Part shown: piece after piece, positions 23,546-63,511 of the stretch | Position numbering within the stretch: position 1 is the first letter of the stretch | Layout: the number at the start of each line of letters is the position of its first letter | From: Candidatus Levyibacteriota bacterium | GTDB taxonomy: Bacteria; Patescibacteriota; Microgenomatia; Levybacterales; UBA12049 | Assembly: GCA_963722305.1 (NCBI GenBank) | Contig: CAVRKE010000001.1 | Span: forward strand, 309,549-373,548 | Reading direction: 5' to 3' | DNA: 64,000 nt | Notes under the pieces: model-generated | Seen by the model: only the letters and a program-made list of their open reading frames with translations | What the model was told of the DNA's origin: nothing | The model's database searches: none | Position numbers and translations under genes: made by a program

Positions 23546-23554
23546 TACTATTAT

Positions 23555-23590
23555 AGTAATTGTTTTTGCGTTATAATGTCAACAATAATG
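23555..23590 (-). promoter_or_regulatory. Sigma70-like promoter for pilB (TTGACA-18-TACTAT), near-leaderless
   Basis: Minus-strand reading ...TTGACATTATAACGCAAAAACAATTACTATAATAGTA-ATG. Confidence 0.4.
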
Positions 23591-23747
23591 TTTCAAAATA
23601 GAGCTCATAATTACGCGAATTTAATTGACCTAGAATTATTGAAATTAGAAATGGGAAGTTGAAAATTGAATCCTTGAAATCTGGAATTCTAGAAATCGAA
23701 AAATCAAAATCCAGAAAATCCAACTTCCGATATCAAGAAATCAAAAT

Positions 23748-24413
23748 ATGACACAAAGCGTTTTAATTGTCGGGGAAAAAGAAAAAGCCAGGGAGAAAGC
23801 CTTAAACATTGCCCGGGAAAATTCAATTTCCCGGTTCGACATTGAAATAATCGAAACGGAAAAAGCGGTCGGGATAGGGGACATTCGACGTTTGCAGAAA
23901 AAGATTTGGCTCAAGCCGATTAAAAGTGAAATAAAAGCGGTAATTTTGGAAGCGTTTTATGAGATGACGGTGGAAAGCCAGAATGCCTTCCTGAAAATGT
24001 TGGAAGAACCGCCTGCCAATACAATTGTGATAATTCTTGTTTCCTCTTTGGATTTTTTACTTCCGACAGTCCTCTCCAGATGCAATTTAATTAACCTTAA
24101 TCAGCTCAAGAATCTTTCAGACGAAGATATGGAAAGTAACCTGAGATTAATTCTTGACCTTAAAAACCAAGGACACGCAAACGCATTAGTGCTGACCCAA
24201 AAGAATTCAAAAGATAAAGAAACCGCCTTGCAATTTTTAGAGAATTTAATAGTGGCCGCACACCAGGCCTTAGAAAGTAATACCGCTGAATTCTCGACTG
24301 AGGATTTGCGAAAAATTCTAAAGAATTTACAGGCAACTTATACGCTGATTAAATCAACCAACGTCAATGTCCGCTTTGCCCTGGAGAATTTATTTTTGAA
24401 CTTCCTTATTTAA
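23748..24413 (+). CDS. holB: DNA polymerase III delta-prime-like subunit
   Basis: AAA+-like fold with ...AFLKMLEEPP...TIVIIL...LSRCNLINL (SRC motif) typical of HolB. Confidence 0.7.
   Translation: MTQSVLIVGEKEKAREKALNIARENSISRFDIEIIETEKAVGIGDIRRLQKKIWLKPIKSEIKAVILEAFYEMTVESQNAFLKMLEEPPANTIVIILVSSLDFLLPTVLSRCNLINLNQLKNLSDEDMESNLRLILDLKNQGHANALVLTQKNSKDKETALQFLENLIVAAHQALESNTAEFSTEDLRKILKNLQATYTLIKSTNVNVRFALENLFLNFLI
24365..24403 (+). repeat. Direct repeat, copy A (the holB 3' end); the partner is at 25886-25924
   Basis: 39 nt, 36/39 identical: CAATGTCCGCtTTGCccTGGAGAATTTATTTTTGAACTT. Confidence 0.85.
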
Positions 24414-24457
24414 AACCCATAGTTTTATTTCCCGGCTAATTTTGCTATAATCGAAAA

Positions 24458-24907
24458 ATGATTAATGGATGGATGATTGTCCCTACATCAGACGGATTTA
24501 AATTACGAACAGAAGAAGCAATCGCCGGGCGAACTAACGGTGCTATTCTTTATACTGAAACATGGGGCGAACGTGATGTTCGGACTCGATTTTCCGGAGC
24601 TTTTGATTTAGGGGAAGGAAGCAAATATTACGAATTTAGCCTTGAAATTGATCAATCAGCAAGCATAGGTTTACCCTTTTCGCAAATTCACGTAGGTTTC
24701 AATCAAGAACTTCTCGGGGCAACGGCGCTCTCAAAAAGGGCACGCAAGAAAGCAATTGAATTAGCCGCAACCCTTCCTGAGGAACTTAAAACACTAGGAT
24801 CAAGGTTAGACAAAAGAGAACTAGCGGAAGCATGGCGAAAGACACTTGAAATTTACGATGAAATACCCCATGGAGAATCTGCTTCTCCTCAAGGAAGAAT
24901 AAAATAA
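24458..24907 (+). CDS. Hypothetical protein (149 aa)
   Basis: ORF preceded by an extended -10 TGCTATAAT at 24434. Confidence 0.4.
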   Translation: MINGWMIVPTSDGFKLRTEEAIAGRTNGAILYTETWGERDVRTRFSGAFDLGEGSKYYEFSLEIDQSASIGLPFSQIHVGFNQELLGATALSKRARKKAIELAATLPEELKTLGSRLDKRELAEAWRKTLEIYDEIPHGESASPQGRIK

Positions 24908-24970
24908 GCACGATAAGTTCTAAATCTCTACAAGTAAAAGCTCACGTGTATAATCTGCTAAAATAAAAGC

Positions 24971-25873
24971 ATGAATTTATCTACAAACAGACAGGGAGAG
25001 TTATCGGTACTTTCGGAGGCTGCCCTGTGGGGACTGTTTCCGGTTGTTACCGTTTTATCGGAAGACAAGGTTGCACCGCTGGTGGCTTTGGGATTTAGTA
25101 CTCTCTTCGCCTGCATATTTTTTGCCGTAGTTTTAACCCTGAAGAAAAAATGGAAAGAGTTGCTGCAAAAATCCGCGCTTTCGGATATTTTAATTTCAAC
25201 CTTACTTCTGGGCATAATTTATTACGTTCTGACTTTTTTTGCCCTTCTGCACACCAGCCCCGGCAATGCCAGCATTATTGGGGTGGTAGAAATATTTTTC
25301 AGTTTTCTGTTCTTCCATGTATGGCGTAAAGAAGAACTGGTGAAATGGCACGTTGTCGGCGCAATCTTTATGGTAATCGGAGTCATCATTATTTTTTCCC
25401 CGAATTTTCGCCAGTTTCAAATCGGTGACTTATTAATTTTGCTGGCAACCGCAATTGCTCCTTTCGGCAATTTTTTTCAAAGAAGAGCCAGAACAAAAGT
25501 TAGCAGTGAAAGCATCTTGTTTATCAGAACTGCCATCAGCGCAGCAGTGATTTTGTTTATGGCGCTTTTACTCGGTAATTCTTTTTCGGTGCGCGGACTT
25601 TCCGACATTTGGCTGTTGCTTATTATTAACGGCGCGGTTATTTTGGGATTTTCCAAAATTCTCTGGATTGAAGGGATTCACCGCATTAGTGTTATGAAAG
25701 CTAACGCTTTGGCAACCGTCGCACCGCCCACAACTTTAATTTTTGCCTGGCTCATATTGCAAAAAGCTCCAACTATATACCAACTATTTTCCTTTGTGCC
25801 GATATTTATCGGGGTAATATTTTTAAGCATTAACAAACGGGTTTCAAAGCAGGAAGCCGAACAACACGATTAA
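24971..25873 (+). CDS. EamA/DMT-family transporter (10 TM)
   Basis: Two repeats of 5 TM helices; about 300 aa. Confidence 0.6.
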   Translation: MNLSTNRQGELSVLSEAALWGLFPVVTVLSEDKVAPLVALGFSTLFACIFFAVVLTLKKKWKELLQKSALSDILISTLLLGIIYYVLTFFALLHTSPGNASIIGVVEIFFSFLFFHVWRKEELVKWHVVGAIFMVIGVIIIFSPNFRQFQIGDLLILLATAIAPFGNFFQRRARTKVSSESILFIRTAISAAVILFMALLLGNSFSVRGLSDIWLLLIINGAVILGFSKILWIEGIHRISVMKANALATVAPPTTLIFAWLILQKAPTIYQLFSFVPIFIGVIFLSINKRVSKQEAEQHD

Positions 25874-25885
25874 ATCAAGCATTTC

Positions 25886-25924
25886 CAATGTCCGCATTGC
25901 TTTGGAGAATTTATTTTTGAACTT
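25886..25924 (+). repeat. Direct repeat, copy B (a duplicated holB 3' end)
   Basis: See copy A; it lies immediately after the EamA gene stop. Confidence 0.85.
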
Positions 25925-25955
25925 TTAGGAAAAAGGTGCTATAATCTACAATACT

Positions 25956-26225
25956 ATGAGTCGCTTAGAGAATGGGGCAACAGCGGGACATTTTTTTGAA
26001 GATGGAGAAGATAGTACCGCACTACTTGGCAGAGCAGGGCAATTGATTGAAATTGAAGAAATTCTTCAACAGGGAGGAGTTCTTCCGGCAATCGAATATC
26101 GTATCGGCACCGACGCAAATAGACTTTTAACAGCGGGCGATTTACCTCTTATCGGCGCGGCGATCGACATAATCTCTCAAACAATTGCACCATCGAGCGC
26201 TGACATTGCAGCAATTCGCTACTAA
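25956..26225 (+). CDS. Hypothetical protein (89 aa)
   Basis: ORF 13 nt downstream of GTGCTATAATCT (the same box as at 28412). Confidence 0.3.
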   Translation: MSRLENGATAGHFFEDGEDSTALLGRAGQLIEIEEILQQGGVLPAIEYRIGTDANRLLTAGDLPLIGAAIDIISQTIAPSSADIAAIRY

Positions 26226-26275: not shown

Positions 26276-26539
26276 TCAATGCTTAAAGTTACTATGTTCA
26301 AACTGAGCGCCGTCTTTTGTAACAATAAAGTCTACGTCCCGAGTATACGCGGGTTTATCTCCGACTGCGGGGATTTCAGTCCTGGTTGAAAACCTAACTT
26401 CTTCTTGCTCTACTCTAGAACAGATCATTACTTGCGGATTAGGCATTACTATTGGTAGAGAAGGCTCCGGAGCATGTAAATCGGAAATTTCTAAGCGCGG
26501 TGCCCTAGTGCCAGCACTGATATCTATATGAACCTCCAT
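26276..26539 (-). CDS. Hypothetical protein (87 aa)
   Basis: ORF only; about 50% GC, higher than the surrounding sequence. Confidence 0.3.
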   Translation of the reverse strand: MEVHIDISAGTRAPRLEISDLHAPEPSLPIVMPNPQVMICSRVEQEEVRFSTRTEIPAVGDKPAYTRDVDFIVTKDGAQFEHSNFKH

Positions 26540-26805
26540 CCAGTAACATCCAGGTAAGCCTCGACCAACCTTAGGGGATTTTTACCTTCACTCTTAGCTA
26601 CACTTGGTCCGTTTTGCATTAGCGGACAGGTTGCGCCGGTAAGCCGCATTATGGTTCTGACGTCATCTGGAGTTAAAGCCGATAATGGTTTAATGTCTGT
26701 AGTTCCTGCTGCTAATTCGGCAGCTGCTGTCTGATCTGGCCTTGGTGCTTCTGGTGGTCTTGCCATAATTACTTGGGGCAGAATAAAGCGATTATAAAGA
26801 GCCAA
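26524..26805 (-). CDS. Hypothetical protein (93 aa)
   Basis: ORF only; overlaps the next ORF by 16 nt. Confidence 0.3.
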   Translation of the reverse strand: MALYNRFILPQVIMARPPEAPRPDQTAAAELAAGTTDIKPLSALTPDDVRTIMRLTGATCPLMQNGPSVAKSEGKNPLRLVEAYLDVTGWRFI

Positions 26806-26827
26806 AATGCGGATGTCAAGAACAATT

Positions 26828-27268
26828 TTAGCCGATGGTTTGCTGGCCGAGGCTTTTTCTGATGGCCGACTCGATTACTCGTTGGCCGACCACAATGTCG
26901 TGTTTTGTTTGCTCGGAAAGATTTAATTTGGGAACTTGTTTAAAGCTAAACCAGGCAAACCGGCCTTCTTTGGCTAACATTTTTTTGCCGACTCTTTTCA
27001 CTTCGGCATAATAGATACTGTGGTCTTTATCCGTTCCGCTGGCATAACGCGTATAAATGTAGAAAATTTTTTTGAGGCTGATTTTTAGGTTTAAGTGTTT
27101 TGAAATTAAATCTTTGAATGTTTGTTCACCCGAAGCTTCTGCGCCAACCTCATTTTCCAGTAAGGCCCATGGACCATTTTCGTCGGCGTTATTTTGTTGT
27201 TGCAAGAGAATTTGCTGAGACAGGGGATTGTATAGAAATCCGCTTGCATAAAAATCATTATGCATCAA
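26828..27268 (-). CDS. Hypothetical protein (146 aa)
   Basis: ORF only; no clear motif. Confidence 0.35.
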   Translation of the reverse strand: MMHNDFYASGFLYNPLSQQILLQQQNNADENGPWALLENEVGAEASGEQTFKDLISKHLNLKISLKKIFYIYTRYASGTDKDHSIYYAEVKRVGKKMLAKEGRFAWFSFKQVPKLNLSEQTKHDIVVGQRVIESAIRKSLGQQTIG

Positions 27269-27996: not shown

Positions 27997-28044
27997 CCGC
28001 GGTAGAGATACGGAGGATTTGATTTTTAAGCCTCTAGTGATATA

Positions 28045-28374
28045 ATGCTGCGTATGCCAAAAATTACTCCAGACAGACCAAGCGCAGAGCGACAAATGGC
28101 AATCAAACTAGCAATGACGGCAGAAGCAAGACCGCTTATTTTAGATACGCTTATATCTTTCAGCCATGTTGGAACAATAACGGTACGAGCAGTTGATTTG
28201 CGCACAGAAATTCCAAATATCCTTAAAGCTGAAAAGAAAGAGGGGGAAGAACCGCCGGAAGAAATATTTTCTATGGCCCTGGATCTACTTGTAGAAATGG
28301 GCCAAGTAACCCGCGTACCACGTCCTACTACTGACGGGGGTACTGAAAACTGGTATGAACGAGTCCAACGATAG
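28045..28374 (+). CDS. Hypothetical protein (109 aa)
   Basis: Preceded by TGATATAAT at 28033. Confidence 0.35.
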   Translation: MLRMPKITPDRPSAERQMAIKLAMTAEARPLILDTLISFSHVGTITVRAVDLRTEIPNILKAEKKEGEEPPEEIFSMALDLLVEMGQVTRVPRPTTDGGTENWYERVQR

Positions 28375-28390
28375 CGCCGTTCTCTCCGGG

Positions 28391-28425
28391 AAAAATTTGG
28401 GTTTATAGTCCTGCGGTGCTATAAT
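28391..28425 (+). promoter_or_regulatory. Island promoter motif copy 1 (AAAAATTTGGGT -35 ... 17 nt ... TATAAT); transcript for the 28437 ORF is near-leaderless
   Basis: A-tract plus TTGGGT at 28397-28402, a 17-nt spacer, TATAAT at 28420-28425, ATG at 28437. Confidence 0.5.
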
Positions 28426-28436
28426 CTGTTCTAACT

Positions 28437-28997: not shown

Positions 28998-29057
28998 TTG
29001 AGGAGAAATCCCGCGGGCCGAAGATACCCATTGAGCAAAAAATTTGAGGCGGAACCT

Positions 29058-29537
29058 TTAATGAACCCAATTAACTACTTTCGGCACTTTAGCAAGTCTT
29101 AATAAATTCTGTTCACCTACTTGCGGCACATTAGCAAGTCTGAATAAATTCCGTTGTATTTCGGCTGGTGTTAAAGGCGTATATCCTTCCGGCAAATTAC
29201 CTGCTATAAATCTTTCCATTAATCTTCCTTGCTCATCATATCGATAAATAATCGTGTTACTGGGAACCACGAACCGCTCTCCGTCAGACCCCCTGAATCC
29301 TACGTATTCTCCGTCTCGATTGTGTATCTGTACAATCGGTCTTCCGGTTTCTTTCGATGTGAATGTTCCAAACTCATAACCTAGTAGACGAGACATTCTC
29401 TCGTCTGTTTGGGCTAATTCTTGTAACTGAGCATGTCTTTCGGCCGCTTGTTCTTCTGGATTATCTCCTTCTAGCATATTACTTAAAATTATACTACAAG
29501 ATGCACCAAAAAACAAAAAAATGTAGGCCGTAGGCAC
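29058..29537 (-). CDS. Hypothetical protein (159 aa; probable start at the internal MLEGDNPEE) with a C-terminal internal repeat
   Basis: C-terminal NLFRLANVPQV / NLLRLAKVPKV, encoded by an imperfect 30-nt direct repeat at 29086-29150. Confidence 0.4.
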   Translation of the reverse strand: MPTAYIFLFFGASCSIILSNMLEGDNPEEQAAERHAQLQELAQTDERMSRLLGYEFGTFTSKETGRPIVQIHNRDGEYVGFRGSDGERFVVPSNTIIYRYDEQGRLMERFIAGNLPEGYTPLTPAEIQRNLFRLANVPQVGEQNLLRLAKVPKVVNWVH

Positions 29538-29553
29538 ACAAACGTCTAAAATT

Positions 29554-29582
29554 TGGGGTTGAAAACTTAAAGTTGTATAATA
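29554..29582 (+). promoter_or_regulatory. Island promoter motif copy 3 (TTGGGG-17-TATAAT)
   Basis: AAAATTTGGGGTTGAAAAC...TATAAT; the ORF-track TTG start at 29573 lies inside the -10 box, so the true start is probably the GTG at 29588 (leaderless). Confidence 0.5.
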
Positions 29583-30106
29583 GCCTCGTGAAAATTAATT
29601 TTTATCCCGAACAGAATAATCTAAAATTCGCAAAAGCCGCCAAAGAATACCGGATGATTTGGGGGAAAGAAGGCAAAAAAATAACCGCAACGATTGAAAA
29701 AATAAGCGGTTTAAAGTTTAAAGAAAAGATAATCAACGCCTTAATCTATGACGAAATCTCATATTCCGTACCGTTGCAACTTCAGGCCGAGATGTCAATT
29801 AAACATAAAAAGGGCACTTTGGTTCATGAGCTGTGCCACCGACTGGTGGTAGGAAACCATATTAAGCTCAAAGCCGAAAAAACCTACAACAGCTGGAACA
29901 TGGCTATTCATAAACACATTGACCTGATTCTTTACGACATTCTGGTTGAGCTTTACGGAGAAAGTTTTGCCAAAGAAGAAATAAAATATGAAATCAGCCT
30001 TTGGAACCAAAAAGGAGTTAGCCCTTATAAAATTGCCTGGGACACCGTTTTAAAAATGGCCAAAGAACAGCGCCGCCGGGAATTTCAAAAATATCTTAAA
30101 AAATAA
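29573..30106 (+). CDS. Hypothetical protein with an HExxH (HELCH) motif; the start is probably 29588
   Basis: A single HExxH at residues 85-89; Lys-rich; no other identifiable domain. Confidence 0.45.
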   Translation: MYNSLVKINFYPEQNNLKFAKAAKEYRMIWGKEGKKITATIEKISGLKFKEKIINALIYDEISYSVPLQLQAEMSIKHKKGTLVHELCHRLVVGNHIKLKAEKTYNSWNMAIHKHIDLILYDILVELYGESFAKEEIKYEISLWNQKGVSPYKIAWDTVLKMAKEQRRREFQKYLKK

Positions 30107-30379
30107 CTGCGAAAATCGAGCGAAAGTCGAGCGAAAGCGAGATGCCCTAAGACAAATAAAATTTGGGTTGCCCCATTACGGCATGTTCTAACGAAATATT
30201 TCAATATGTCTATTGACAAATAATTATTTATAGGCTATCTTGTTTAAGATAATAAAGATCCTGCCCAATATATATTATCGGCGGCAATGAAATATATTTT
30301 GAGCTTTGAAACACCCGGTTTTTAAACTTAATTCAAGTTTTAAAAAGGGTGTTTTTTTAAAAGGAAAGGAGGTGAAAAA

Positions 30380-30826
30380 ATGAAAAAAATATTACTATCT
30401 TTAGTTTTAAGCATCGCAGTTTTAAGCGTTGCTTTGGTAACAACGCCTAAAGTCCAGGCGGCAACATGCAACGGAAATCCATACATCATAACCTATGTAG
30501 GAATTAATTTTACACTAACTAGTAAAACCTGGTGCTCCACATATAATTACGAAAAGGGAGATAGTTGGTATTCAATTGCTGTAGCAAATGTGGGTGAAGC
30601 CTGGAACGACAATATAGGTTCCATAAAAATGGTCGGCTGGCCTTATGGTAGCGTACTTCATTATTATCTTGATCAAAATTACAACCTTAGTTGTACTAAT
30701 TGCATGAAACTTACGACTACGGTTAACTCAACTCCTGAGACCATCCCGAATGTTTATGCTTATCATTGGCCAACTGGTCTTGGAAATATTAACACAATCT
30801 CATCTTTTGATGGAATAAGTCCATAA
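30380..30826 (+). CDS. Small secreted Cys-containing protein (148 aa, Sec signal peptide)
   Basis: MKKILLSLVLSIAVLSVALVTTPKVQA/ATCNG; strong RBS AAAGGAGGTGAAAAAATG; 4 Cys in the mature part; terminator downstream. Confidence 0.6.
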   Translation: MKKILLSLVLSIAVLSVALVTTPKVQAATCNGNPYIITYVGINFTLTSKTWCSTYNYEKGDSWYSIAVANVGEAWNDNIGSIKMVGWPYGSVLHYYLDQNYNLSCTNCMKLTTTVNSTPETIPNVYAYHWPTGLGNINTISSFDGISP

Positions 30827-30867
30827 AAGAATGGGGGAATTATTGAAATAGAACTGGCTTTTCTTTT

Positions 30868-30912
30868 CGTTTGCCAAAGAAAGGCCGGTTTTGGGTGTTA
30901 AAAATCAATTTT
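30868..30912 (+). terminator. Rho-independent terminator after the secreted-protein gene
   Basis: GGCTTTTCTTT-tcgtttgcc-AAAGAAAGGCC stem followed by GGTTTTGGG. Confidence 0.45.
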
Positions 30913-30951
30913 AATCTCGGGTCAGAGGCGTAGAAAATTTGGGGCGGAAAA

Positions 30952-31284
30952 CTATTCAGGAATTTGCAGTCCAACGTGTTGTTCGAGACGGACGATTCTT
31001 TTTCTTTGTTGCATCTGTTCTTCGTCAAGCATCCTCAGCATTGTGCTTTGGTCGCGCTTTACCTGAGAAACATCTCTTTGAATTTTCTTAATCTGATTAG
31101 CTTCATCATCAAGCTTAATTTCAACATTTTTAGTTCTGTTATCCAGCGCACCGATATTCGCTTGAACTTGCATTCTGGATAATCTAATTTGGCTTTCCAA
31201 AGTTTGGGTTGAATCTTTAACTTCTACTTCTACCTCCTGGCGGACAACTTTTCTAATCTGATCTAAATCATTTTTCGTTAACAT
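30952..31284 (-). CDS. Hypothetical charged coiled-coil protein (110 aa)
   Basis: Heptad-like Q/E/K/R-rich sequence. Confidence 0.4.
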   Translation of the reverse strand: MLTKNDLDQIRKVVRQEVEVEVKDSTQTLESQIRLSRMQVQANIGALDNRTKNVEIKLDDEANQIKKIQRDVSQVKRDQSTMLRMLDEEQMQQRKRIVRLEQHVGLQIPE

Positions 31285-33390: not shown

Positions 33391-33467
33391 AACTAAATTT
33401 AACCGGGGCCAAGCGAAAGCGAGGTGCCCGGAGGCAAAAATTTCGGGCGGAAAACCCATAGTTGTAT

Positions 33468-33898: not shown

Positions 33899-35941
<2,043 letters not shown>

Positions 35942-39005: not shown

Positions 39006-41488
39006 ATGGCTGATATCGGAAAACTACAAAATACGGAAATTGCTTTTGAAATGAAACGCGCGTACTTCGACTACGCCATGTCGGTTATTGTTTCCAGGGC
39101 TCTTCCGGATGTCAGGGACGGATTAAAACCGGTCCACAGACGTATTCTGTTTGCAATGCATGAAATGAATTTGACCCACGCCGCCAAATATTCCAAGTCC
39201 GCCAAGATCGTCGGTGAGGTAATGGGAAAATACCATCCCCATGGAGACGTCCCGATTTACGATTCTTTGGTAAGACTTGCTCAGGATTTTTCGATGCGCT
39301 ATCCGCTTGGTTGACGGGCAGGGAAACTTCGGCTCCATGGACGGTGACCCGCCGGCCGCGATGCGTTACACCGAAGCCAGAATGGCCGCCATCACCGCCG
39401 AAATGATGCTGGACATGGAGAAAGAAACAGTCGATTACATCCCCAACTTTGACTCAACCTTAAAAGAACCGGTTTTCCTGCCCAGCCTTTTGCCAAACTT
39501 GCTGCTGATGGGTAGCGAGGGTATTGCCGTTGGTATGGCCACCAAAATTCCGCCGCATAACCTAGGCGAAGTGATTGACGCGGTCGAGTATTTAATTAAA
39601 AAAGCTAAAATTACCATTGAACCAAGATTTACCATCACTTCCGAAGTTACGGTTGACGAACTGCTGGAACTGATTAAAGGTCCGGATTTTCCGACCGCCG
39701 GCGCAATTTATGACTGGACGGAAATTAAAAACGTTTATACGACCGGCCGGGGCAGAATTATTATCCGCGGTAAAGCCGAAATTGAAGATATCGGACAGGG
39801 AAAGAGTGCCATTATCATCACCGAAATTCCCTACCAGGTCAATAAAGCCTTATTGGTGGCCAGAGTTGCGGAACTGGCCAAAGAGAAAAAGATTGAGGGC
39901 ATTTCCGACCTTCGCGATGAGTCCGACCGGCACGGCATCAGGGTTGTGGTTGAACTAAAAAGAGACAGTGCGCCGAAAAAAGTGTTAAACAATTTATTCA
40001 AATACACCGCCTTTCAGACCAGTTTTCCGGCCAACATTGTTGCTTTGGTTGACGGCACGCCGCAAACCTTGAATTTAAAAACCATTCTGGAAGAATTCTT
40101 AAAACACCGCTACCTGGTAGTCAAAAGACGCAGCGAGTTTGAATTAAGGCAGGCCAAAGCCAGACTGCACATTTTGGAAGGGCTAAAAATCGCGGTGGAG
40201 AATATTGACGCGGTAATTAAAACCATTCGCGAATCCAAAGACCAGGATGATGCCAAGAAAAACTTAATGACCAAATTTAAACTAGTCGGACCTTCAAGCC
40301 ACAGCCATCTTGGATATGCAACTAAGACGTTTGGCGGCGCTGGAACGACAAAAGATTGAAGAAGAATACCAGATGGTTAAAGAAACGATTGCTTATCTAG
40401 AAGATTTACTGGCCCATCCGGCCAAAATTTTAATTGTCATCGGCGAAGAGCTGACCAAATTAAAAGAAAAGTATTCCGACCCAAGACGCACCAAAGTCTA
40501 CAAAAGTAAAGTCGGCGAGTTTTCCGAGGAGGATTTAATTCCCAATGAACCAACCGTGGTCACTCTGACCGATACCGGCTACATTAAAAGGCAAAGTTTA
40601 AATAGTTTCCGCACCCAACAGCGGGGCGGCAAAGGCATTATCGGCATGACTACCAAAGAAGAAGACAATATTGCCGAAATCAAGTCCATCGAAACCCACG
40701 ACAACTTATTATTCTTTACCAATAAAGGCAAGGTTTACCAGATTAAAGCTTACGAAATAAACGAATCTTCCCGAACCAGCAAGGGAACCGCCATTGTTAA
40801 TCTTTTGAATATTGAGGCCGGGGAAAGAGTTGAATCTTTTGTCAATTACACGACTAAAGGCTCGGAAGCAAAATATGTTTTCCTGGCAACCAAAAACGGC
40901 ACCGTCAAAAAAAGCGTTTAAACGGAATTTGAAAATATCCGAAAAAGCGGCATCTTGGCCATCAAACTTGATAAAGACGACGAGTTGGTTTGGAGTAAAT
41001 TAACTAGCGGAAACGACGACATCTTACTGGTCACCAGAAACGGGAAGTCAATCCGGTTTTCGGAAAAATCGGTCCGCGGCATGGGCAGAAACACCATGGG
41101 AGTAAGAGGAATTTTGATTAAAAAAGACGCTAAAGACGACCGGGTTATCCAAATGGACGTTGTCGGCAAAAACTTCAAAGTTGGAAGTGTTTACAATTAT
41201 GGAAAAAGGCTTAGGCAAAAAAACTCCGGTCAACGAATTCCATCCGCAGGGCCGCGGCGGGCAGGGAGTAAAAGTGGCCGAAGTAACCGAAAAAACCGGC
41301 AAAGTGGTACTTCGCAAATCATTCCGGAAGGCTCCGAAGAAGTGATTATTACCTCGCAAAAGGGACAAATTGTCAAACTGGAGGTTGCCTCCATACCCAA
41401 ATTGACCCGAGCCACCCAGGGCGTAATTTTAATGCGCTTTTCCGATAAAACCGACCATGTTGCTTCGGCAACGTGCATTGAAAAGTAA
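39006..41488 (+). pseudogene. gyrA: DNA gyrase subunit A, disrupted by four 1-nt indels and one in-frame TAA
   Basis: Canonical GyrA segments occur in alternating frames: ...[26 protein letters not shown] / VDGQGNFGS...; ...KFKL / SDLQATAILDMQLRRLAALE...; KKSV*TEFENIRKSG...; ...EKGLGKKTPVNEFHPQGRGGQGV... / ...SEEVIITSQKG... Frame changes are at about 39304, 40296, 41170 and 41310; TAA at 40919-40921. Confidence 0.85.
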
Positions 41489-46743: not shown

Positions 46744-47718
46744 TCACTTATTTCCGGAGTGGAAATTATGGTGGACTTCGTGCAATTGTCTGTTGGTAAT
46801 GTGGGTATAAATTTGGGTGGTGGCGATATTTTTGTGTCCGAGCATTTCCTGGACCGAGCGGATATCGGCACCGTTAGTCAAAAGGTCGGTCGCAAAAGAA
46901 TGCCGGAGTGTATGGACTGTTGCATCAACGGGAATCCTCGCTTTTCGAACATATTTTTTAACTATCCTTTCAACACTTCTAACAGTCAGTCGCATCTTCT
47001 CACCGCCGTTTTCTTCGACTGTTTTTCCCGAATAGCGGATAAATAACGGCTTAAAATCATCTTTTCGTTGGTCCATATACCGTTTAATCCAATCCGCCGC
47101 CCGGTCGGAAACAAAAACAATTCTCGCTCTGCCGCCTTTGCCGATTACTCCAAATTCACGCCTTTCCAAATTTACCTGGTCGTGGTTTAATTTTGCCAGT
47201 TCGGATACGCGCAACCCGGTAGAAAAGAGTAGCTCCAAAATCGCCCGGTCCCTGAGGCCTTCTTCGGTTGAAGTATCACATGACGTAACCAAACGGTCGA
47301 CCTGCTCTTTTTCCAAGAATTTTAGACTGCGACTTTCGGTCTTGGGCAAATCGATTTTTGAAGGCTCCAGGGTCTGGTAATCATTTTTTATTAAGAAGCG
47401 AAGAAACGAACGAAGGGCAATGACGTAGTAGTTTTGCGTCACTCTTTTTAAAGTCATATTTTTTTCATCAACCCGGTTAGCCAGAAACACCCGGAATTTT
47501 CTGACCGTTTGCAAATCCAAATCTTTTAAGGATTTCCCCGGTAGGTTAGTGTCATACCATTCGTTAAAAACATCCAGATAGTGCCTATAATCGCGGATAG
47601 TGAGCTTACTGCAGTTTTTTTCAATCTCCAAATACTCGAGGAATTGATTAATAAGTTCGGAAAGATTCTGATTATTCATAGACTGTATCATTGTGTCGCA
47701 CAATTTATGACTTGTCAA
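46744..47718 (-). CDS. Tyrosine recombinase XerC/XerD family
   Basis: C-terminal R...HxxR...Y catalytic residues (VHTLRHSFATDLL...LGHKNIATTQIYTHI); N-terminal SAM-like domain. Confidence 0.8.
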   Translation of the reverse strand: MTSHKLCDTMIQSMNNQNLSELINQFLEYLEIEKNCSKLTIRDYRHYLDVFNEWYDTNLPGKSLKDLDLQTVRKFRVFLANRVDEKNMTLKRVTQNYYVIALRSFLRFLIKNDYQTLEPSKIDLPKTESRSLKFLEKEQVDRLVTSCDTSTEEGLRDRAILELLFSTGLRVSELAKLNHDQVNLERREFGVIGKGGRARIVFVSDRAADWIKRYMDQRKDDFKPLFIRYSGKTVEENGGEKMRLTVRSVERIVKKYVRKARIPVDATVHTLRHSFATDLLTNGADIRSVQEMLGHKNIATTQIYTHITNRQLHEVHHNFHSGNK

Positions 47719-60529: not shown

Positions 60530-60661
60530 CTATAAGATGTGGGCGAAGAGTGCCCCAAGAGCATTTGCCACTTCGTGGCGGCAGATTCCCACCCTTCGGG
60601 TTCGAAATCTATTTCCGCCTGAAAACATTTTCCAAAGCTAAAGCTTGAAAAATCTTTTCAG

Positions 60662-60744
60662 TGGGCGAAGAGGGATTCGAACCCTCAAGACCTTGCGATC
60701 AATAGTTTTTGAGACTATCGCGTATACCGTTCCGCCACTCGCCC
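60662..60744 (-). tRNA. tRNA-Leu (anticodon CAA), class II with a long variable arm; CCA not encoded
   Basis: GGGCGAG-U-GGCGGAACGGUAUACGCG-AUAGU-CUCAAAA-ACUAU-variable arm-GAGGGUUCGAAUCCCUC-UUCGCCC-A folds into a cloverleaf with a 7/7 acceptor stem. Confidence 0.75.
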
Positions 60745-62661: not shown

Positions 62662-63511
62662 GTTCTCCTACCCTGTTGGTAAAGCATGTAGCGTGTTTTG
62701 CAAGTAATGGTAAGGAGATTTAAACATTTCCGGTCTGGAAAATCTGCAGTAAAATTCACAGACATATTCTTCAAGCTTTTCTTCACTGACATGGTGGTAC
62801 ATCCTCCGGATAAAAGTCCTTAAAACGCCAAACATTCCTTCAATTTCAGAGGTGTTGGTAAACTCAAATTTCTTGTGAATGTCTGTCATATGGAATAGAG
62901 GATAATACTTATCAATATTTTTGTAAATAGTAGAGCCATCTGTATTTAGTTGAGACTCTGGTTTAACGTAAGTTCTAACAAAATCAATTGCATCTTTCTT
63001 CGCTGGGGCATCAGAGGAGAGGATTTGATAAGCAAGCTTTCTGGTTCCTCTCTCCTTTCCCATGAGAAGTGCGGTATTACCAAATCTGCCAAAGTAGGCC
63101 TCATCAAGCTGGACAATATGCTCTAGAAGCCTCCGATCTCTTGGTAATTGTTCTCTGAACAAGTCAAAGTAATGTCTGACTCCCTTCTCAGACAAAGAAG
63201 TTAGATCTTCAGTCTGTTTAACCGGCATTTGTTTTGTCCAGCACCAGAGAATTAACCAAAATCTCTGCAAAGGAATCTTCACATTGCAAAGCCAGGTATG
63301 GGAAAACAGCGAGAACTTAATCTGACATTGTCTACATCTGTATCTTTTTTCAAAGCGAACAATATTCCAGGATTTGCACTTTGGACAGAAGATATTTCTA
63401 CCAAAAACAGTTCTTCTGAGAAACTTTTTAATCTGGGCATCCGTAGGTACTTGTTTTAAATGGTACATAATCATATTCTAACGATTTTGTACCAACAGGG
63501 TGGGATTACCC
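62662..63511 (-). mobile_element. IS1595-family insertion sequence (about 850 bp) with 21-bp imperfect terminal inverted repeats and an 8-10 bp target-site duplication (C)AAAATCAGG
   Basis: IRL GGTTCTCCTACCCTGTTGGTA at 62662-62684; IRR (revcomp) GGTAATCCCACCCTGTTGGTA at 63488-63511; direct repeats CAAAATCAGG at 62652-62661 and 63512-63521. Confidence 0.65.
62668..63474 (-). CDS. IS1595-family DDE transposase with an N-terminal zinc ribbon
   Basis: CPKCKSW...CRQC zinc ribbon; QLDEAYFG DDE motif region; 268 aa. Confidence 0.7.
   Translation of the reverse strand: MIMYHLKQVPTDAQIKKFLRRTVFGRNIFCPKCKSWNIVRFEKRYRCRQCQIKFSLFSHTWLCNVKIPLQRFWLILWCWTKQMPVKQTEDLTSLSEKGVRHYFDLFREQLPRDRRLLEHIVQLDEAYFGRFGNTALLMGKERGTRKLAYQILSSDAPAKKDAIDFVRTYVKPESQLNTDGSTIYKNIDKYYPLFHMTDIHKKFEFTNTSEIEGMFGVLRTFIRRMYHHVSEEKLEEYVCEFYCRFSRPEMFKSPYHYLQNTLHALPTG

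Follow-up and report, generated by a model that had tools for sequence, protein, structure and literature searches.

Islands that tyrosine integrases insert into the 3′ ends of tRNA, tmRNA, or protein-coding genes are bordered by direct repeats made of the 3′ end of the target; the gene stays intact and the repeats lie at the edge of accessory DNA. Integrative mobile elements exploiting Xer (IMEX), e.g., CTXphi and the gonococcal genetic island (GGI), carry no integrase and depend on the Xer-type recombinase of the host. A dif-like site is about 28 bp long and consists of a 6-nt spacer flanked by two 11-nt arms that are partially palindromic. Transposons and insertion sequences (IS) are recognized by a transposase, terminal inverted repeats, and a target-site duplication of 2 to 14 bp, and integrons by IntI with attI and by cassettes that each end with a structured attC. 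For type VI secretion system (T6SS) and Rhs loci, a displacement model that invokes homology-facilitated illegitimate recombination was put forward to account for 3′ regions and immunity genes left as orphans behind conserved genes (Kirchberger et al. 2017, PMC5361080). In this kind of recombination, DNA taken up by natural transformation is joined by one homologous and one illegitimate end (PMC3240628). Here, we analyzed a 64-kb stretch of DNA (the window) from a 608-kb contig of Candidatus Levyibacteriota, a member of the candidate phyla radiation (CPR, Patescibacteria) with a streamlined genome of about 0.6 Mb. The 3′ end of its holB gene recurs 1.5 kb downstream, at the end of a gene encoding an EamA transporter. 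We read this second copy as an orphaned holB 3′ end, the scar of general recombination that stacked two alternative downstream-of-holB modules with no site-specific recombinase, and give this reading a probability of about 0.62. The gene and the two copies of its end are the following (window coordinates):

23748 to 24413, plus strand: holB, encoding the delta′ subunit of DNA polymerase III (221 amino acids; PF13177 at 7.6e−25, TIGR00678), the conserved left anchor of a variable region.
24347 to 24403, plus strand: repeat copy 1, the functional holB 3′ end, with codons I-K-S-T-N-V-N-V-R-F-A-L-E-N-L-F-L-N-F.
25868 to 25928, plus strand: repeat copy 2, the putative orphaned and noncoding holB 3′ fragment (IKSSISNVRIALENLFLNF plus TAG), with a decayed 5′ half and an intact 3′ end of 22 nt.

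The original prediction had described a 39-nt repeat with 3 mismatches (24365 to 24403 versus 25886 to 25924), which we found exactly as claimed. Ungapped homology reaches 18 nt further upstream, giving 57 nt (24347 to 24403 versus 25868 to 25924), of which 49 (86%) are identical. All 8 mismatches fall in the first 35 nt, while the last 22 nt are the same in both copies (post hoc P = 0.014). Copy 1 had been taken for the last 39 nt of holB; it does lie at the 3′ end of the gene, but the open reading frame (ORF) continues for 10 nt past it (CCTTATT plus TAA), with the stop codon at 24411 to 24413. Copy 2 had been placed directly after a hypothetical gene and the EamA gene. Its position at the EamA end is right, but it opens with GATTAA, whose TAA (25871 to 25873) is the EamA stop codon, and it thus overlaps the end of this gene instead of strictly following it. 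The junction between EamA and the orphan reads CAACACGATTAAATCAAGCATTTCC.

Chance similarity or an artefact of assembly would find some room in the AT-rich 3′ part of the repeat and nowhere else, and we regard this explanation as practically negligible. When the window was shuffled 100 times with its dinucleotides preserved, a second match to the 39-nt repeat never appeared. We also compared 12 lineages, that of the window and its relatives (labeled L below), and a nucleotide profile of their holB 3′ ends matched copy 2 with an E value of 1e−6 over profile positions 29 to 86, where the profile ends. Three independent assemblies, which stem from at least two samples, are concordant. The Logan assembly L015, obtained independently, matches the window at 100% identity over 11,825 bp and has the same arrangement. 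L025 comes from a different sample and is noisy, with about 95% identity and indels mostly in homopolymers; its gene order is the same, and it contains both copies. Because L015 and L025 reproduce the arrangement, it is no artefact of assembly. The species that carries the orphan is represented by the window, L015, and L025, i.e., by only 2 to 3 contigs from at least two samples.

The second copy derives from the end of holB, as had been proposed: it remains in frame and is nearer to the resident gene than to the holB of any relative. We retrieved 316 holB homologs, mostly from Levyibacteriota and other Patescibacteria, in which the C-terminal motif IK[ST]TNVxxRFALENLFLN is nearly invariant (TNV in 120 homologs). 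In the holB frame (25869 to 25928), copy 2 reads IKSSISNVRIALENLFLNF followed by TAG and breaks the TNV motif, while the genuine C terminus reads IKSTNVNVRFALENLFLNFLI before the stop. Over the 57 nt, copy 2 shares 49 positions with copy 1, 43 with the holB of L001, the closest relative, and at most 40 with all the other lineages; copy 1 and L001 share 50. Copy 2 has the copy 1 state at the 6 informative positions where copy 1 differs from L001, and its 8 differences from copy 1 are all private to it. The distant L003 also has two of these (GCT TTG), which we presume to be a homoplasy. Over its last ~90 nt, holB is 85 to 87% identical to that of L001, matching the genome-wide value of about 88%, and copy 1 is therefore the vertically inherited end. 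The profile search revealed a single holB end, inside holB, in the 11 other lineages, so that among the 12 lineages the orphan is present only in the species of the window. Copy 2 thus comes from an allele of this lineage, or of a conspecific, after the split from L001, and then lost its coding constraint, since it is closest to copy 1, shares its states against L001, and differs from it by private changes. The event is older than the divergence between the window strain and L025, since both share the orphan, which differs by 1 substitution in 61 nt in L025. That the repeat is the footprint of a DNA rearrangement at the end of holB is hence well supported.

Three features lie between the two copies:

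24414 to 24457, plus strand: spacer between holB and the next gene, ancestral, with a predicted extended −10 promoter (TGCTATAAT, 24443 to 24451).
24458 to 24907, plus strand: hyp149, a fast-evolving hypothetical gene (149 amino acids), the habitual downstream neighbor of holB.
24971 to 25873, plus strand: transporter of the EamA/DMT family (300 amino acids; PF00892 at 1.9e−32), a gene new at this position.

The two genes had been proposed to form an insert bounded by the repeat copies, which does not fit their distribution: they are never adjacent elsewhere, and the left junction is shared with relatives. Homologs of hyp149 directly follow holB with 46% amino acid identity in L010 to L014 and P0242 and with 43% in L019 and L020, and a homolog with 26% identity lies two genes downstream of holB in L001. 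The family has no match in Pfam, PHROG, or NCBIfam, and the AlphaFold2 (AF2) model of the protein is too poor to be of use (pLDDT of 50). The spacer, in its motif AACCYATAGTTT and its length of 44 to 50 nt, is common to L010/L011 and L019; the gene starts with ATGATTAAYGGATGG in L010 to L014, as in the window, and with ATGAATATAGTC in L019 and L020. No second holB end was found in the 2.4 kb further downstream in L010. The DNA to the right of copy 1 thus belongs to the ancestral neighborhood and is not an insertion junction, because holB, spacer, and hyp149 are syntenic in L010 to L014 and in L019 and L020. The closest homologs of the EamA protein (60 to 63%) occur in other contexts, e.g., beside recA in L017, and none adjoins hyp149 or holB. 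The length of its C-terminal tail falls inside the range of the family. For an insertion of EamA alone, similarity or direct repeats between its flanks (24895 to 24975 versus 25850 to 25960) scored within the null range. By this comparison, hyp149 and EamA do not form a unit, because the former habitually adjoins holB and the homologs of the latter sit elsewhere. GC composition showed no clear break at 24404 or 25924.

These results bear directly on the mechanism initially proposed, site-specific integration into the holB 3′ end. Under it, an integrase-less element of 1,521 bp (hyp149 plus EamA) would have entered this end through the Xer-like enzyme, in the manner of IMEX, or through an integrase acting in trans, and the two copies would be attL and attR. 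Direct repeats made of the target 3′ end do flank the segment, the identical last 22 nt could be a crossover core, and the holB 3′ end is regenerated, as in islands at the ends of tRNA and other genes. The constant position of the hyp149 family beside holB could in principle reflect a family of elements targeting this site. However, the junction on the attL side is orthologous chromosomal DNA in lineages that have no attR, whereas an island would have novel junctions at both ends. The repeats are 14% diverged, and the differences destroy a conserved coding motif, unlike what is expected of an attP arm. The segment has no recombinase of its own or beside it, and does not recur as a unit, since EamA and hyp149 do not travel together elsewhere. 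Neither the 22-nt core nor the 1.5-kb segment matched collections of viral contigs, phages, or plasmids.

The search for a recombinase in the island was likewise negative: the ORFs between 24458 and 33390 match no recombinase, phage, or mobile-element family, and their only matches in Pfam, PHROG, and NCBIfam are two EamA proteins. The genome does have one enzyme of the Xer type, the sole tyrosine recombinase in the window, 21 kb from the segment:

46744 to 47718, minus strand: Xer-like tyrosine recombinase (PF00589 and PF02899; similar to TIGR02225/02224, 253 bits).

A small insert without integrase and a host recombinase of the XerC/D type are what this locus has in common with IMEX. It differs from them in that the repeats have no 11-6-11 dyad and that the site lies in coding sequence, in the holB-gyrB region, and not in a recognizable dif. 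In and around either copy, the best dyads paired 6 to 7 of 11 arm positions among about 70 positions tested, which is ordinary given a window-wide background of 3% at score 6 and 0.8% at score 7. There are no inverted repeats at the segment ends (24404 and 25868). The suggested IMEX-like use of the nearby Xer enzyme thus finds no support, because dyad pairing in the repeat is at the background level. Overall, the locus resembles tyrosine-integrase islands in its direct repeats, its intact gene, and its position at the border of accessory DNA, and departs from them in the absence of an integrase, the ancestral left junction, the coding-destroying divergence of the repeats, and the lack of a mobile counterpart. 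We consider integration unlikely. It is disfavored rather than disproved, because no genome with an empty site was found: the 12 lineages showed neither an empty site nor a second holB end, and exact protein matches to holB and ORF89 (the gene that follows the orphan) came from the same species only.

Other mobile elements fared no better. The segment encodes no transposase, and a 57-nt duplication is far too long for the target-site duplication of a transposon or IS. There is no integron integrase, the repeat does not fold, and Rfam gave no attC-type match. Scans for terminators, tRNAs, and tandem repeats returned nothing at the repeat.

The 3′ part of copy 2 adjoins a gene restricted to the species:

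25917 to 25945, plus strand: predicted promoter of ORF89, with a −35 box TTGAAC (25917 to 25922), a 17-nt spacer, and TGC-TATAAT (25937 to 25945).
25956 to 26225, plus strand: ORF89, an ORFan immediately after the orphan, also found in L015 and L025.

The putative −35 box corresponds to the Leu-Asn codons of the orphan, and the −10 element is again TGCTATAAT. The consensus scan gave 10 of 12 matches plus the TG extension. The ATG of ORF89 lies 10 nt past the −10 box, which predicts a nearly leaderless transcript. L025 keeps both hexamers and loses the upstream TG (TGC to CGC). A comparable situation is seen in L021, where the promoter of the gene after holB has a −35 box overlapping the holB stop codon and the spacer to the gene is 31 nt. 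From these sequence features, the 3′ 22 nt of the orphan were probably kept as a part of the ORF89 promoter, and this would explain why the fragment, and especially its last 22 nt, has persisted, because this promoter needs the last codons of holB, if ORF89 once followed holB. In L025, a patch of 10 nt between the −10 box and the ATG of ORF89 (25946 to 25955) is changed from CTACAATACT to GAGGAACACC, giving a Shine-Dalgarno-like GAGGA, in DNA that is otherwise nearly identical.

The intact 22 nt, together with the single substitution of copy 2 in L025, could also be taken as signs of a conserved function, with the repeat serving as a terminator, an RNA motif, or a protein-binding site behind both holB and EamA instead of being a scar. 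We find this very improbable. Neither copy has a stable fold (z-scores of +1.25 and +0.66 relative to shuffles) or a terminator-like hairpin, and Rfam gave no match. The sequence is in-frame holB coding sequence, present once and inside holB in the 11 other lineages. The conservation in L025 does not single it out, since the other intergenic regions are equally conserved between the window and L025. Nonsynonymous substitutions between the two assemblies are far above synonymous ones even in EamA, and L025 is full of homopolymer indels and probably of substitution errors, so that the ratio of the two classes is no guide to selection on ORF89, hyp149, or EamA.

The displacement of a 3′ end accounts for these observations as follows. 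We infer two close haplotypes that differed after holB, one with holB-hyp149-EamA and the other with holB-ORF89 and the ORFs of 87 and 93 amino acids that now lie downstream of it. A cell of one haplotype would have received DNA of the other, plausibly through natural transformation, given the type IV pilus cluster that adjoins the locus. On one side, homologous recombination would have taken place in holB or on the side of a shared gene of 146 amino acids; on the other, an illegitimate join of the microhomology type would have linked the end of EamA to GATTAA, 67 nt ahead of the holB stop. Such a course follows the scheme of homology-facilitated illegitimate recombination. Alternatively, a circularized fragment could have integrated through one RecA crossover inside the 57 nt, with the same product. 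Copy 1 would have stayed under selection, while the displaced copy 2, freed from coding constraint, would have decayed over the first 35 nt. The last 22 nt of copy 2 would have remained unchanged, carrying the −35 box of the promoter of ORF89, the gene that always followed it. ORF89 would thus be a former immediate neighbor of holB in one parental haplotype, where the hypothetical junction would read holB(...GAACTT) and then TTAGGAAAAAGGTGCTATAAT.

The arrangement has the hallmarks of such a scar: a conserved anchor is followed by variable content, and an in-frame 3′ fragment without its 5′ part lies downstream of the newer module. These are also the features of Rhs, contact-dependent inhibition (CDI), and T6SS loci, where a new module joins a conserved upstream anchor with no dedicated recombinase, and the old 3′ end is pushed down with its former downstream gene(s) as an in-frame orphan without 5′ part. 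The differences lie in the actors. The anchor here is the housekeeping gene holB and not a polymorphic toxin, the orphan is 57 nt long and comes from a conserved end instead of a variable toxin tip, and the cargo consists of a transporter and ORFans rather than toxin-immunity pairs. There is a single displacement, not an array, and the host belongs to the CPR (Levyibacteria).

Several observations weigh against this account. No empty-site or single-module haplotype was found: among the sampled lineages, there was neither holB-hyp149-EamA without the orphan nor holB-ORF89, and the parental arrangements are hypothetical for this reason. ORF89 has no homologs, and its adjacency to holB was never seen as a native one. 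The competence of the host is an assumption. Five mismatches are concentrated in 9 nt (25879 to 25885), straight after an 11-nt perfect match, which is unlike simple independent neutral decay. The ORF89 promoter is a consensus match only, in a region with 24 promoter-like sites versus 22.2 expected from shuffles. Finally, a crossover inside holB was suggested by the amino acid identity to L001, 92% in the N-terminal half and 68% in the C-terminal half; the nucleotide profile is patchy with no clean breakpoint, and this candidate was set aside. As for the joint itself, GATTAA doubles as the EamA stop codon, and telling microhomology from true homology there would take the parental sequence.

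A purely local event would need no incoming DNA: template switching or slippage, at replication or repair, would have copied 57 nt of the holB end (the −35/UP region) in front of ORF89 on the same chromosome, and EamA would have arrived separately. The proximity of copy 2 to the resident allele fits this, as does its plausible role as a promoter part, and each of the other genes of the island has a short promoter module of a similar kind, behaving as a duplicated unit would. Yet two independent events, the gain of EamA and the copying of the fragment, would have had to meet precisely at the stop codon of EamA. No signature specific to such a mechanism, e.g., an inverted pair of microhomologies, was seen, and the in-frame start 19 codons before the end of holB, instead of a copy of the useful −35 part alone, would be left unexplained. 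We therefore hold a local event to be possible and rather doubtful.

The repeat is set in a variable region. From left to right, the genes are a type IV pilus cluster whose last members, pilT and pilB, are on the minus strand, then holB, hyp149, EamA, the orphan, about 8 kb of small ORFs, and gyrB at 33911. The pilus cluster (PilB, PilT, PilM, and pilins) lies immediately upstream of holB, and the small ORFs have no family matches apart from a second, unrelated EamA. The pair pilB-holB and gyrB are syntenic in every relative recovered. The interval between holB and gyrB is 1.8 kb in L007, about 7 kb in L001, and about 10 kb in L003, and its content is different in every lineage sampled (L001, L003 to L005, L007, L010, L021 and L022, and L023). 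Relative to L001, whose flanks are about 88% identical in nucleotides, homology breaks off right at the stop codon of holB and is found again from 26819 onward. The holB-gyrB interval is a genuine plasticity and recombination zone between conserved anchors, and the earlier placement of the start of the accessory region at holB stands.

The right end of the DNA absent from L001 and the first gene beyond it are the following:

26276 to 26819, minus strand: two overlapping ORFans (87 and 93 amino acids) with a perfect promoter TTGACA-17-TATAAT (26819 to 26791).
26828 to 27268, minus strand: conserved island gene (146 amino acids), the first gene that is again shared with relatives.

ORF89 has no homolog outside its species among 1.84 billion representative proteins, except for one weak local match (26%) to a protein of 2,168 amino acids. 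The two minus-strand ORFans have no family matches and no homologs in the locus of any relative, and they may be one gene with a frameshift. The 146-amino-acid gene is 94% identical at the protein level to that of L001 (11716 to 12156) and 55% identical to that of the gene directly after holB in L023. It is a possible right-hand homologous anchor for the recombination.

The interval resembles other plasticity zones in its size (1.8 to 10 kb) and in its lineage-specific small ORFs between syntenic core genes (the type IV pilus cluster with pilB and holB on one side and gyrB on the other). Unlike plasticity zones in general, it is found in a streamlined CPR genome of about 0.6 Mb and has a motif of about 20 nt, specific to the interval and always in the same orientation, with an associated promoter module. 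This motif, AGAAAATTTGGGG[CT][GT]GAAAAC (short form AAAATTTGGGG), is always on the plus strand, in most of the intergenic gaps between holB and gyrB, and nowhere else in the 64 kb. It occurs in the window at 28392, 29037, 29546, 30932, 31359, 32278, 32576, and 33435, with 4 matches having at most 3 mismatches versus 0.11 expected. It is also found in the same interval in four other lineages of Levyibacteria: L001 (12665, 13285, 13700, 13974, and 15686), L003 (15465), L007 (3120), and L010 (3917 and 4423). In a first subtype, the motif is followed about 11 nt later by TAGTGnTATAAT, forming a predicted extended −10 promoter module. In a second (GGGGCGGAAAAC), it directly abuts the stop codon of genes on the minus strand.

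Copies of the motif or of the module bound two indels between the window and L001. In the window, the copies at 29037 and 30932 enclose a block of 1.96 kb with three ORFs, and L001 shows just one copy at this place (window 29037 to 30952 versus L001 13255 to 13310). A gene of 109 amino acids (28045 to 28374) is enclosed by two promoter modules, in place of the one seen in L001 (window 27997 to 28436 versus L001 12657 to 12700). These indels are consistent with either the gain of a cassette with its own module or a deletion between short direct repeats. One could go further and read the whole holB-gyrB interval as an array of cassettes, independent of a recombinase or served by an unknown one, with junctions marked by the motif and the holB 3′ end as the primary attachment point; the orphan and the motif-bounded indels would then come from one mechanism of insertion and excision. 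The holB 3′ end, GAGAATTT-N7-GAAC, is loosely like the motif. We find such an array highly unlikely. The motif and promoter module bounding the indels between the window and L001 are nevertheless the more intriguing by-product of this analysis.

The orphan is a modest further example of a gene end orphaned by recombination, here that of a housekeeping gene in a streamlined CPR genome, and it fixes where a plasticity zone begins on the left, in organisms about whose ways of exchanging genes little is known. The finding suggests that this exchange relies on general or illegitimate recombination with core genes as anchors, plausibly after DNA uptake, and not on integrases. It also suggests that a displaced coding fragment can be retained as part of a (predicted) promoter. 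A duplicated gene end is thus not necessarily an att site, which calls for caution when such repeats are interpreted.

Other features were observed in the interval and around it. An element of about 27 nt, AGCGAAAGCGAG[AG]TGCCC..., with GCGAAAGC mini-hairpin units in it, is shared by positions 30109 to 30156 and 33412 to 33438, just after two island genes of the plus strand. Its first copy lies inside an 11-nt tandem repeat (three units), and it may be an intergenic module of the terminator type. The intergenic region between pilB and holB (23546 to 23747) is 202 nt long and rich in units of the GAAAT/GAAAA type, versus a length of 49 nt in L001, and the extra ~150 nt have no Rfam match. Downstream of the interval, gyrA (39006 to 41488) is covered by four consecutive or overlapping ORFs of 102, 360, 203, and 177 amino acids (PF00521 and then PF03989). 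We read them as frameshifts, either real or due to sequencing errors, because gyrA is a single ORF of 825 amino acids in L023; the gyrB of L001 is likewise split into two ORFs. The only transposase in the window, of the IS1595 family (DDE_Tnp_IS1595 and zinc ribbon; 62668 to 63474, minus strand), lies beside dnaB, 37 kb from the segment, and a tRNA-Leu(CAA) gene (60661 to 60744, minus strand) is located near it.

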